Below are positions 30,200-32,863 of a stretch of 64,000 bases of DNA, one piece after another (positions within the stretch are counted from its first letter, which is position 1; every line of letters begins with the position of its first letter). Source of the DNA: a virus (Duplodnaviria > Heunggongvirae > Uroviricota > Caudoviricetes); the IMG/VR virus record IMGVR_UViG_3300031134_000639, one strand, 5' to 3'. The position numbers were made by a program, and so were the translations under genes. The notes beneath the pieces were generated by a model. The model did no database searches and had not been told where the DNA came from. It saw nothing but the letters and a program-made list of their open reading frames with translations.

Positions 30200-30511
30200 A
30201 TGGTCACTCTACTTATACTTCAGATTTTTATCACTCTCATAGCTTTCATGCTGGGAGGGTCAATAGCATCATTTTTAGGTGTGGTCATTGAACGCGCAGG
30301 CCGTAAGGAGCCTATCACAGGTAGAAGCCACTGTGCATGCGGACGTAAACTTGAATGGTATGAGAACATACCCGTGTTCGGCTGGCTACGTGTCGGCGGT
30401 AAAACCAAGTGCTGTAACACCAAGCTCCCTGTATGGTACCTCCTGTTTGAAATTGGCCTAGGGCTAGTCTTCGCAGCTGGAGCATGGTTCGGTCTAGCTT
30501 TACTAGGCTAA
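30200..30511 (+). CDS. Prepilin-peptidase N-terminal-domain-like membrane protein (no A24 peptidase domain)
   Basis: ORF 30170..30511, start moved to ATG 30200 after CCGATAAT. GGSIASFLGVVIERAG..SHCACGRKLEWYENIPVFGWLRVGGKTKCCNTKLPVWY matches the Cys-pair N-domain of type IV prepilin peptidases. Confidence 0.6.
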   Translation: MVTLLILQIFITLIAFMLGGSIASFLGVVIERAGRKEPITGRSHCACGRKLEWYENIPVFGWLRVGGKTKCCNTKLPVWYLLFEIGLGLVFAAGAWFGLALLG

Positions 30512-30575
30512 CAATTCTGTTCATCTTGCTAAAAAACTGAGATGAAAAACATTTCTGCGCTAAGCTTAAACCAAT

Positions 30576-31157
30576 ATGGAAATGCTAAACAGTTTCACAG
30601 AGGGGTCAGCAACTGCGACCCTGTTCCTCACCGTGGGGATATTAGCCACAATAGTTCTTATCTTCACTTTTGTGTTAGATGGAATTCTTGAAGCGTTCGA
30701 CATTGGTGACGGGCCGCTGAGCATCAGCGTAATGTCATCTTTCGTAGCGCTATTCGGTTTCGTGTCATTTGCCGCAATCACAGCGTATGACACGTCCGTT
30801 CTAACAGCAGTCATAGCCGGTGCTATAGCAGGGCTTCTAGCTGGAGTGTTCGCTTTCATGGTCACCCAGTTCCTGCGAAACTCTGAGCACAGCGACTCCG
30901 CTGGTGTGTCAGAGTTCATCGGACGAAAAGGAAAGCTCACATATGGTATCCGTGCTAAAGACAACGGAACCATGAGCTACGGTGAAGTTTCCTTGTACCT
31001 TAGAGGAAACAAATACGTCTTCTCTGCAACAGCAGAAGAGGAGATACCCAAAGATGCAGAAGTTGAGATAGCAGAACAACGCTCTGATACTTTGATGCTG
31101 GTCAAGCCAGTAGAAACACCAGAAACATCAGAAATAAATAACAACGTAACGAATTAG
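30576..31157 (+). CDS. NfeD-like membrane protein
   Basis: ORF track. Several TM helices plus a C-terminal OB-like GRKGKLTYGI..GEVSLYLRGNKYVFSATAEEEIPKDAEVEI. Sits directly upstream of flotillin, as in yuaF-floT operons. Confidence 0.7.
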   Translation: MEMLNSFTEGSATATLFLTVGILATIVLIFTFVLDGILEAFDIGDGPLSISVMSSFVALFGFVSFAAITAYDTSVLTAVIAGAIAGLLAGVFAFMVTQFLRNSEHSDSAGVSEFIGRKGKLTYGIRAKDNGTMSYGEVSLYLRGNKYVFSATAEEEIPKDAEVEIAEQRSDTLMLVKPVETPETSEINNNVTN

Positions 31158-31180
31158 ACCAAGGAAAGGTAAACCTACGC

Positions 31181-32863
31181 ATGTTAGAATCCGTAACACC
31201 GGTTATCGTAGTAGTAATTGTAGCGATAATCGTACTAGCCGTCTTGGGTGGTCTCGCAAGAAACCGCTACAAGATTAGCGCACCTGATGAGGTAATCATC
31301 ATCACAGGTCGTAAGAACAAGGTCACACGCGATGCAGACGGAAACGTTCTATCAGATGTGTCCGGACAGAAAGTTGTCAAAGGTGGTGTGTTCGTCCTAC
31401 CGTTCGTACAGCAGGCCTACAAGCTTCAGCTACGTTCACGTAAACTGAACTTCCGCTCCGGTGGCGCTGTCACAAAGAACGGTATCACCATCAACGCTGA
31501 GGCTGTTGCAACAATCAAGATTGGTGACACAGATGACACTATCCGTGCCGCTGCTCAGCGATTCTTGAACCAGCAGAACGAGATTGAGCCATTCACACAG
31601 GATGTTCTCTCAGGTTCACTCCGTGCCATCATCGGTACCAAAACAGTTGAAGAGCTTCTAAGCGACCGTGAGGGTCTAGCTGCTGCTGTACGTGAAGCAG
31701 CCGAGGACGCTCTAACCAAGCAGGGTCTTCTGCTAGACAACTTCTTGATTCAGTCCATCGAATCAGAAGACGACTACATCACCAACCTTGGTCGCCCACA
31801 GCAGGCTGCTATCCTTCGTCAGGCTAAGATCGCGGAAGCCCAGGCTAACCGTGAGTCTGAGGAAGCACGCATCACAGCTGAGCAGGCTGTTGCCAACGCA
31901 CAGCGTGAGCTTTCACTTCGTCAGGCTGCTATCCAGGCTGAGACTGACCGTGCTGCCGCTGAAGCTGCTGCCGCTCGTCCTCTAGCTGAGGCAACACAGC
32001 AGCAGGGTATCGTTAAGCAGCAGGAGATCACCGCTGTTGCCAACGCAACTCTTCGTGAGCGCCAGCTTGACGCTGAAGTTCGTAAGACAGCTGATGCTGA
32101 CGCTTACCGTGTCCGCCAGCAGTCCGAAGCTGAAGCATACCGTGTCCGCCAGGCCGCTGAGGCTGACCGTGACCGTCGTATCGCAGAGGCAGACGCTCTT
32201 AAGGCTGTTGGTTTGGCTGAGGCTGAAGCCATCCGCGCTAAAGGTAACGCTGAAGCTGAAGCTACCAAAGCTAAAGCTGAGGCTCTTGCTAACCAGGCTG
32301 ATGGTGTACTCCAGCAGATGGCTATTGAGATCCTACCTCAGGTTGCACGCGAGATGGCTGCTCCCATGGGCAACATCTCCAACCTAACTGTTGTATCCTC
32401 TGACGGTGCCAGCGCTTTAAGCAAGAACGTTGCATCAGGTGTCTTGGAGACAAGCACACTCGTTAAAGGCGCAACCGGAATTGACCTGTCAGCAATGTTC
32501 AACAGTGTCATCGGTGGAGCAGCTGCGGGAGCGGCAGCGGGAAAAGCAGCCAGGAGTAACGCGGCGGCTACCAGCCCAACCGTTACTCCATCAGCCGAAC
32601 ACCACACTGAAGCTCACGAAACCCCGGTAGTTCCAGTGGTACTTCCAGGTGTTGACACCAGCAGAGTAACACAATCTGTTGATGCTAATGCAGACTGGGC
32701 TTACAGTAAAGCTGAAGAGTTCATCAGAAGAGGTGTTGACCTGAGCGATAGCTCACAGGCGGAAGTCCGTGAGTGGCAGGGGATAGCACAGGATGTTCTC
32801 AACAACGGTTCACCCGCAGCTATTGAAAAAGTAGCAAAGATTCAAAACCTTCTGCGAAAGTAG
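31181..32863 (+). CDS. Flotillin (SPFH/band-7) protein
   Basis: ORF track. N-terminal TM, SPFH core (PDEVIIITGRK...INAEAVATIKIG), then a long Ala/Glu/Arg coiled coil with flotillin-type EA repeats. Confidence 0.85.
   Translation: MLESVTPVIVVVIVAIIVLAVLGGLARNRYKISAPDEVIIITGRKNKVTRDADGNVLSDVSGQKVVKGGVFVLPFVQQAYKLQLRSRKLNFRSGGAVTKNGITINAEAVATIKIGDTDDTIRAAAQRFLNQQNEIEPFTQDVLSGSLRAIIGTKTVEELLSDREGLAAAVREAAEDALTKQGLLLDNFLIQSIESEDDYITNLGRPQQAAILRQAKIAEAQANRESEEARITAEQAVANAQRELSLRQAAIQAETDRAAAEAAAARPLAEATQQQGIVKQQEITAVANATLRERQLDAEVRKTADADAYRVRQQSEAEAYRVRQAAEADRDRRIAEADALKAVGLAEAEAIRAKGNAEAEATKAKAEALANQADGVLQQMAIEILPQVAREMAAPMGNISNLTVVSSDGASALSKNVASGVLETSTLVKGATGIDLSAMFNSVIGGAAAGAAAGKAARSNAAATSPTVTPSAEHHTEAHETPVVPVVLPGVDTSRVTQSVDANADWAYSKAEEFIRRGVDLSDSSQAEVREWQGIAQDVLNNGSPAAIEKVAKIQNLLRK

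Follow-up and report, generated by a model that had tools for sequence, protein, structure and literature searches.

Introduction

It is established that the N-terminal domain of prepilin peptidases (IPR010627) is a methylase domain, that the zinc bound by its four cysteines is required for methylation and dispensable for cleavage, and that peptidases of the TadV/Tad type do without this domain (PMC10191384; PMC3584216). The methylase domain itself is normally always fused to a peptidase. A second well-described arrangement is that of a short NfeD gene directly upstream of an SPFH/flotillin gene, as in yuaF-floT (NfeD2-FloT) of Bacillus subtilis and ybbJ-qmcA of Escherichia coli, and in the B. 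subtilis pspA-ydjGHI system small integral membrane proteins encoded upstream are needed for membrane placement of the SPFH protein (PMC8581546). Among phages, genes for SPFH/flotillin homologues are annotated in Vibrio phage KIT04 (KIT04_048) and the crAss-like phage csAssE-Sib, and one viral NfeD-like model is held in BFVD; no experimental study of phage flotillins was found, and two overviews of jumbo phages do not mention them. Here we analyse a stretch of 64,000 nucleotides from IMG/VR virus record IMGVR_UViG_3300031134_000639 (Caudoviricetes), hereafter the window, in which three consecutive genes encode a free-standing prepilin-peptidase N-domain (the orphan A24_N protein), a short NfeD-type protein and a flotillin.

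The domain identities of the three proteins are secure, and all three assignments made in the original prediction, which had been drawn from the letters of the window without database searches, proved correct. The NfeD-flotillin pair is by itself ordinary; the unusual and new part of the locus is the orphan domain, which its sequence marks out as a distinct family with re-spaced cysteines. Our preferred reading, on which we are evenly balanced, is that two separate membrane modules lie side by side, namely a flotillin scaffold and a free-standing pilin-methylase domain that would serve pilins encoded by the element itself.

A free-standing N-domain of prepilin peptidases

The orphan protein resembles the N-domain of PilD-type peptidases (PF06750/IPR010627) over the whole profile, in its two membrane helices and in the basic loop with four cysteines between them. 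Pfam A24_N_bact (PF06750) is matched with E=5.8e-21 and 74.8 bits against a cut-off of 23, at profile positions 2-82 of 84, and the helices flank a loop carrying H44-C45-x-C47 and C71-C72. As this loop holds 10 K/R against 4 D/E, it should face the cytoplasm, as in PilD. Unlike the PilD-type peptidases, the protein stands free of the peptidase half and its catalytic aspartates: the Pfam scan found no Peptidase_A24 domain in it, the chain stops right after the second membrane helix (residue 103), and its alignment to full-length enzymes ends before the first aspartate motif, leaving neither catalytic aspartate (the second lies in GxGD) in the protein. An alternative TTG start at 30170 gives a form of 113 amino acids (aa). 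The original prediction had read this protein as an N-domain without the A24 half and had staked that reading on significant similarity to the N-domain family, which is clearly present; the motif that it quoted, SHCACGRKLEWYENIPVFGWLRVGGKTKCCNTKLP, is found in the protein encoded at 30200-30511. TadV/CpaA of the type IVc (Tad) pili already show that cleavage and methylation are separable in nature, and the orphan protein is their mirror image.

The orphan family comprises 52 clusters of 84-171 aa, every one with PF06750 only, and it is monophyletic with respect to canonical N-domains. Its alignment contains 26 invariant residues, including R42-S43-H44-C45, C47-G48-R49, E55-N56, P58-V59, G67 and C71-C72. 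The cysteines, invariant together with His44, follow the spacing HCxC...CC, in contrast to the canonical CxxC...CxxC, so that the pattern CxxC-X21-CxxC is absent, while the family shares with canonical peptidases ENIP, GWL, a glycine ahead of the third cysteine and a glutamate in the second helix. Between genomes the amino-acid identity is 60-76% for the orphan protein, 48-51% for the flotillin and 32-36% for the NfeD protein, with synonymous sites saturated; dN/dS is not computable for the orphan gene at this saturation of dS, and by these identities it is the most constrained of the three genes. The original prediction had called an orphan N-domain unusual, and we agree, with the addition that it represents a conserved stand-alone family and not a decayed gene.

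Also unlike the PilD-type peptidases, the family is found only in a lineage of giant elements. Among the 185,579 species genomes of GTDB, searched with patterns that fit the motif of the orphan family exactly, there was no family member, only full-length peptidases (249-495 aa) of at most 55% identity. A sequence search of the PDB with the orphan-domain profile returned no solved relative, and megablast of positions 29000-34000 against the INPHARED phages returned no match. Two phage hits were obtained with the orphan domain by tblastn; the one in 'Microcystis phage MaAM05' (L167, MW495066.1) was considered as a phage precedent and rejected, as its region looks bacterial. Positions 6650-14865 of that record hold rpmA, rplU, rpsA, ispH, trpS, a sigma factor and a 342-aa open reading frame (ORF) with a prepilin-peptidase N-domain, and look like bacterial DNA filed as phage in INPHARED.

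The NfeD protein and the flotillin

The short NfeD-type protein of 193 aa has no match of its own in Pfam (even at E<=10), NCBIfam, PHROG or PADLOC; PF01957 is reached at its gathering score by 31 of 81 homologues and not by the window's protein, which is too divergent for Pfam. Its identity is established by other means. A word-indexed homologue search gave a single hit and a full HMMER scan was needed, which recovered 170 homologues of 160-200 aa among 1.84 billion representatives, and a profile of 81 homologues matches YuaF (2k14) at E=7e-8 along with two other NfeD OB domains. A single-sequence AlphaFold run was useless, with a predicted local distance difference test score (pLDDT) of 56; the run with an alignment (pLDDT 90) predicts three membrane helices and a five-strand beta domain at residues 118-178. 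The best matches of this model in the PDB, by Foldseek, are YbbJ in the QmcA-YbbJ complex (8z5g, 2.7e-6) and YuaF (2k14), followed by MTH693 (2k5h) and PH1510-C (3wwv). Of the features of a short-form NfeD, the C-terminal OB-like beta domain is present, as are membrane helices at the N-terminus and the position of the gene just ahead of an SPFH gene, and the OB-type C-terminus that had been proposed is borne out by the homologue profile and the model where Pfam misses it.

The flotillin shows an SPFH domain followed by a coiled-coil domain (PF01145 Band_7, 1.6e-27; PF15975 Flot, 2.6e-9), and its residues 65-438 align to human flotillin-1/2 at 2e-40, in agreement with the 560-aa flotillin of the original prediction. 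Against NCBIfam NF058507 FloT it scores 245 bits, where the equivalog cut-off is 700 bits, which makes it a homologue of FloT and not an equivalog. Residues 1-30 form a hydrophobic membrane anchor, and about 120 aa extend the C-terminus. The pair is like yuaF-floT and ybbJ-qmcA in its order, and unlike them in the low FloT score, in the C-terminal extension, in the divergence of its NfeD protein and in its location on a giant, probably viral element. The flotillins of KIT04 and csAssE-Sib are only 29-32% identical to that of the window, over the SPFH part. The nearest named cellular flotillins, at 49-56% identity, belong to Mycetocola, Salinibacterium, Glaciibacter, Cryobacterium and Agromyces (Microbacteriaceae) and to other Actinomycetota, which suggests an actinobacterial origin or host. 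At such distances from the closest named cellular proteins, a recent capture of the flotillin, as raised in the original prediction, is unsupported. In a neighbour-joining tree the flotillins of related elements cluster and the window copy sits on a long basal branch; as this tree is without support values, no conclusion is drawn from it on single versus repeated capture. Neither of two cellular flotillin loci examined has an NfeD or A24_N gene alongside. Overall, the NfeD-flotillin pair is probably an accessory module of actinobacterial type.

Gene order in relatives

Although the original prediction spoke of a fusion, the three genes are separate ORFs on the + strand (30200-30511, 30576-31157 and 31181-32863, the coordinates it had given) and are adjacent only, with 64 nt between the orphan and NfeD genes and 23 nt between the NfeD stop codon and the flotillin start. 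This tight trio is restricted to the window, its near-identical copies (L001, L002) and L093. The adjacency of NfeD and flotillin is retained more widely (L003, L088, L089, L093, L094, L184), and the position of the orphan gene relative to them varies: one to three genes intervene in L003 and L184, and unannotated gaps of 1.3-1.7 kb separate them in L088, L089, L092 and L094. In both L003 (11199-12092) and L184 (10372-11247), the orphan domain is separated from NfeD-flotillin by a DsbA-like thioredoxin (Thioredoxin_4), which could serve disulfide formation in exported proteins, e.g., pilins; the other intervening genes of L003 encode GGACT and a 132-aa membrane protein.

Moreover, the orphan gene persists where the pair is missing altogether. 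The 225-kb contig L097 carries NlpC/P60, A24_N and NT5C genes in this order without NfeD-flotillin, and so does the 204-kb contig L169, with a 57-aa ORF before NT5C; in both, as in the window, the gene just before the orphan domain is an NlpC/P60 homologue. No NfeD-flotillin pair occurs within 8-10 kb in the more distant members of the family (L095, L102, L103, L170 and the P0045 locus). From these gene orders, the orphan gene is taken to be a backbone gene and NfeD-flotillin an accessory insert in one sub-lineage. The idea of one functional unit put forward in the original prediction is weakened by this persistence, and further by the intervening genes and by the giant pilin-like neighbours found in four relatives; the link between the orphan domain and the flotillin looks positional and not obligatory.

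Pilin-like genes near the orphan gene

In those four relatives the orphan gene lies within 8 kb of genes for pilin-like proteins of 740-1,376 aa. In L097 two such proteins, of 755 and 743 aa, are encoded 1.6 and 5.4 kb downstream of it; a 787-aa protein is encoded 0.8 kb upstream in L103 and an 806-aa protein 1.2 kb upstream in L170, each called by a class III signal, G|F(T/S)L(I/P)E, then a hydrophobic helix and Pfam N_methyl, and L095 carries a homologous ORF of at least 1,376 aa. The window's own genome also encodes a pilin-like protein, of 390 aa, 3.2-4.4 kb before the window start (L166, 15278-16450, window + strand). In this protein the textbook prepilin signal KG|FTLIELLVV is combined with a linker rich in Gly and Thr and a globular region at the C-terminus. 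The adjoining gene encodes a HATPase_c_3 protein of 736 aa, and a related protein of 779 aa is found in L169. Class III-like ORFs, mostly small pilins, occur in the flanks of 4 of 139 loci with full-length peptidases, in comparison with 3-4 of 11 orphan loci (Fisher test, p = 0.009 to 0.001, the positive loci being kin and their independence overstated). A functional tie of the orphan domain to the pilin-like proteins, rather than to the flotillin, falls in our judgement slightly short of an even call.

Nature and origin of the element

In overlaps of 12.1 kb and 10.2 kb, the window is 100% identical to contig k141_624373 of ENA ERZ27247443 (624,949 bp) and a Logan contig; a JGI contig of 511,644 bp is 98.6% identical. 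A walk off its 5' end gained 8.5 kb; the 3' walk gained none, the only query-bearing contig ending inside the window. The contigs that encode relatives of the orphan protein measure 204, 225, 617, 689, 725, 788, 791 and 885 kb, among them Ga0540624_0000004 (787,832 bp), Ga0265797_10000002 (791,393 bp), JAAIGE0101188732.1 (725,246 bp) and the contig of cluster P0001 (885,359 bp), and the lineage assembles as contigs of 0.5-0.9 Mb in several metagenomes. The largest phage genome reported is 841 kb (bioRxiv 10.1101/2025.01.14.633092), which some of these contigs would rival or exceed if they were true phage genomes.

The elements are very large and their lineage is poorly catalogued. No relatives were returned from IMG/VR when it was scanned with the alignments of the orphan domain and of the flotillin or with the ADP-ribosylglycohydrolase, and the CCA-adding enzyme returned generic homologues only (33-45% identity). 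RadA was tried as a lineage marker and proved uninformative, its hits being bacterial RadA in mislabelled 'phage' records; several 'phage' records to which RadA and flotillin led are Salmonella contigs or fragments without annotation. No rRNA, tRNA or ribosomal protein gene was found in the 64 kb of the window or in about 215 kb of related loci, the tRNA scans having covered the window and 12 related loci, with a negative result that by itself decides nothing. A Pfam match of any kind exists for only about 39% of the genes called in six related loci, in comparison with about 73% across the collection.

The window encodes ThyX, NrdH, NrdI, an RNA ligase, an NAD-dependent DNA ligase (LigA), RadA and a CCA-adding enzyme, together with 13 ADP-ribosyltransferase paralogues of about 290-320 aa (PF03496, with Alt-like PHROG matches). 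On these grounds the element, which is linked to actinobacteria of soil, resembles a huge phage or some other extrachromosomal element of giant size, and its identity as a phage is plausible; we infer both its viral nature and an actinobacterial host.

The proposed explanation and its rivals

The proposal of two modules, with the orphan domain acting in trans, is made because the N-domain is the methylase module, zinc is required for methylation and not for cleavage and Tad-type peptidases lack the domain. The host element would be very large, outside GTDB, probably viral and associated with Actinomycetota. In the first module, the N-terminal helix would hold the flotillin to the host membrane, where its oligomers would build an SPFH scaffold, and the short NfeD protein would use its OB domain to dock on it, on the pattern of YuaF with FloT and of YbbJ with QmcA; the module would have been acquired from actinobacterial-type genes in one sub-lineage of the elements and would presumably organise or stabilise the host membrane during the activity of the element. 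In the second, the orphan protein, the product of a backbone gene with the motifs of a zinc-binding, cytoplasm-facing methylase domain and with no aspartyl-protease half, would recognise the giant pilin-like proteins of the element itself by the region of their class III signal. It would act there in trans beside a separate methylase-less peptidase, possibly a TadV-type enzyme of the host, in N-methylation or in a different step for which the methylase domain is needed. In TadV the peptidase half stands alone and in the orphan protein the methylase half does, and it is their partnership that we infer; zinc binding, methyltransferase activity and the identity of the peptidase partner are likewise predicted. 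That the orphan protein is actually an N-methyltransferase is a tentative claim, which we consider doubtful.

Several points weigh against the proposal. We know of no assay or structure showing that an isolated A24_N domain binds S-adenosylmethionine or methylates, and to our knowledge the S-adenosylmethionine site of PilD is unmapped and may require the peptidase half. The cysteine spacing (CxC and CC) departs from the canonical zinc motif (CxxC and CxxC). The pilin-adjacent loci have a common ancestry, with L095, L103 and L170 syntenic, and the enrichment is inflated accordingly; about 33 kb separate the orphan gene from the pilin-like gene in the genome of the window, no N_methyl protein lies within 10 kb in L003, L169, L184 or the P0045 locus, and no stretch read contains a type IV pilus machinery gene. 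As for the viral nature of the element, no capsid, portal, terminase or tail gene was found by PHROG and Pfam in the window and its flanks, which cover less than 15% of the 625-kb genome, and the class A penicillin-binding protein (PBP) with PASTA domains and the DnaG of relatives also fit a reduced cellular genome.

An alternative closer to the original prediction is that the three genes form one operon in which the orphan protein is a membrane partner or client of the NfeD-flotillin scaffold and the phage remodels the membrane microdomains of its host, a role that is reasonable by analogy with flotillin biology. The tight spacing on one strand and the single terminator after the flotillin would also fit a real functional link of this kind; the tight trio recurs in L093, whose proteins are only 35-63% identical to those of the window, the whole sub-lineage keeps the orphan gene at most 1.8 kb upstream of NfeD-flotillin on the same strand, and small membrane proteins beside SPFH genes can anchor the SPFH protein, as YdjG/YdjH do for YdjI (PMC8581546). 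The likeness to pspA-ydjGHI is an analogy for this alternative only, and YdjI has no membrane anchor of its own, whereas the window flotillin has one. Against a single unit stand the retention of the orphan gene between NlpC/P60 and NT5C in relatives without NfeD-flotillin, its separation from the pair elsewhere by unrelated insertions (the DsbA-like, GGACT and 132-aa membrane proteins), the closest cellular flotillin loci examined, which have neither gene adjoining, and the very different evolutionary rates of the three genes, and we regard the operon as unlikely. It is still harder to see the orphan protein as a decoy that mimics the substrate-docking half of the enzyme and sequesters host prepilins or poisons the host peptidase, thereby shutting off pili or competence, for instance as a barrier to superinfection by pilus-dependent phages. 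The conserved surface motifs of the domain are kept while the catalytic half is absent, and the family is very strongly conserved and restricted to these elements, as a decoy might be; but the class III-signal proteins of the elements need processing and not blockage, no PADLOC model is matched and direct evidence for a decoy is lacking, so that we consider it quite improbable. That the 103-aa gene is a decaying remnant of a full-length prepilin peptidase would explain an N-domain alone from a normally bi-modular family, but this reading is effectively refuted by the length, the invariant residues and the monophyly of the family: the length of about 100 aa recurs in more than 50 clusters, 26 residues are invariant, amino-acid identity stays at 60-76% with synonymous sites saturated, and the 64 nt before the next gene are too short for a peptidase relic.

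A different kind of doubt, orthogonal to the alternatives above, is whether the window comes from an uncatalogued cell with a reduced genome, e.g., an episymbiont with a Gram-positive-type envelope, in which case the trio would be ordinary chromosomal envelope genes. The contigs of 0.2-0.9 Mb and varied lengths would suit such a cell, as would the cell-like genes for RadA (41% identical to bacterial RadA), LigA, the CCA-adding enzyme, ThyX and NrdHI, the lack of any phage structural gene among those seen and the absence of relatives from the IMG/VR scans. A phage would not ordinarily carry a class A PBP and DnaG, and their presence in relatives is the chief point in favour of a cellular origin. 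On the other side, the family is missing from all GTDB species representatives, no tRNA, rRNA or ribosomal protein gene is present in the window or in the related loci, few genes have a Pfam match, and the 13 ADP-ribosyltransferase paralogues, a ten-member family of about 200 aa, a PARP gene and a truncated synthetase-like gene make up a repertoire like that of huge phages. We therefore hold a cellular origin to be improbable, though a serious competitor.

Features of the locus and of the window

The features around the trio are collected in Table 1. No comparable hairpin lies between those at 27414-27461 and 32873-32921, and the 27.4-32.9 kb interval therefore holds, as one terminator-bounded block, five envelope-directed genes, for the DUF2637 protein, the NlpC/P60 endopeptidase, the orphan domain, NfeD and the flotillin. 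The perfect 20-21-bp hairpins with T runs, including that at 33662-33710, make unusually crisp boundaries of transcription units, and the trio would be co-transcribed. The predicted fold of the leader is moderately more stable than that of shuffled sequences (z = -2.74), and no Rfam family is matched by the leader or anywhere in the window. No PADLOC defence-system model is matched by the trio or its six neighbours.

Table 1. Genes and candidate transcription signals around the orphan A24_N gene (positions in the window)
Feature	Coordinates	Strand	Basis or remarks
Hairpin terminator, perfect 21-bp	27414..27461	+	Inverted repeat, 100% complementary, after the CCA-adding enzyme gene
DUF2637 membrane protein (context only)	27799..28809	+	Pfam DUF2637 5e-11; phrog_733 2e-31
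NlpC/P60 peptidoglycan endopeptidase, secreted	29110..29817	+	Pfam NLPC_P60 5e-26
Sigma-70-like promoter, candidate	29836..29865	+	TTGACA, 18-nt spacer, TATAGT, extended TG; 11/12 consensus, consensus match only
Untranslated leader, 334 nt, 5' of the orphan-domain gene	29866..30199	+	Predicted fold -89.7 kcal/mol
Orphan A24_N protein, 103 aa	30200..30511	+	PF06750 5.8e-21, no peptidase domain
Short NfeD-type protein, 193 aa	30576..31157	+	Homologue profile, AlphaFold model, Foldseek
Flotillin (FloT-like SPFH protein), 560 aa	31181..32863	+	Band_7, Flot, human flotillins, NCBIfam FloT
Intrinsic terminator, perfect 20-bp hairpin then T run	32873..32921	+	Closes the unit after the flotillin
NT5C 5'-deoxynucleotidase	33005..33652	+	Own promoter-like site 32932-32960, own terminator 33662-33710

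Further genes of the window are worth recording. The ADP-ribosyltransferase genes lie at 36004-46054, 48324-49181 and 18778-19686 (-), 12 of the 13 on the + strand and eleven in one uninterrupted run, and an ADP-ribosylglycohydrolase gene (34766-35902) adjoins the array. In L001, which is 98.6% identical, a piece of about 0.8 kb is missing at 37030-37840, as much as one ADP-ribosyltransferase copy occupies (e.g., 36969-37856), and the copy number therefore varies among near-identical genomes. A WGR-PARP gene and a truncated aminoacyl-tRNA-synthetase-like gene occur in relatives. The ten-member family, of about 186-226 aa, is encoded on the - strand (310-3983, 5954-6565, 11092-13157), and the single member scanned matched no Pfam or PHROG model; smaller paralogue families lie at 4102-5180, 16091-18682, 51716-53640 and 57991-60667. 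The NrdH-like glutaredoxin (61756-62121) and NrdI (62218-62643) are followed by a large ORF that runs off the window end and is likely NrdE, and HAD_SAK_2, PGDYG, NERD and Asp23 proteins are also encoded. The RadA of the window (46896-48311) has 471 aa and no Hom_end match, and those of L169 (15368-17905) and L170 (3811-6360) have 845-849 aa with Hom_end matches, which suggests an intein. The class A PBP, with transglycosylase, transpeptidase and PASTA domains, and the DnaG primase of relatives are encoded near the orphan gene (L170, 12048-14435 (-) and 15737-17530 (-); L103, 61-2109; L095, 8879-11224).

Significance

The more interesting association of the orphan domain is with the giant pilin-like genes and not with the flotillin. 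A conserved free-standing methylase beside its likely substrates would offer a clean handle to separate the two activities and to define a minimal methylase. A broader claim, rather unlikely in our estimate, would be that a lineage of virus-like elements of Actinomycetota, giant in size (0.2 to at least 0.9 Mb), encodes giant type-IV-pilin-like surface proteins together with a free-standing pilin N-methylase working in trans with a methylase-less peptidase, the first natural physical uncoupling of pilin methylation from leader cleavage, and that one sub-lineage co-expresses flotillin-NfeD as a possible maturation platform. If the element were cellular or the domain inactive, the locus would reduce to an ordinary NfeD-flotillin pair with an odd neighbour. 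If the preferred reading of two membrane modules is true, very large virus-like genomes would bring to the host both pilin-like surface proteins and flotillin/NfeD membrane scaffolds of their own, neither of which is mentioned in the two overviews of jumbo phages that were consulted.

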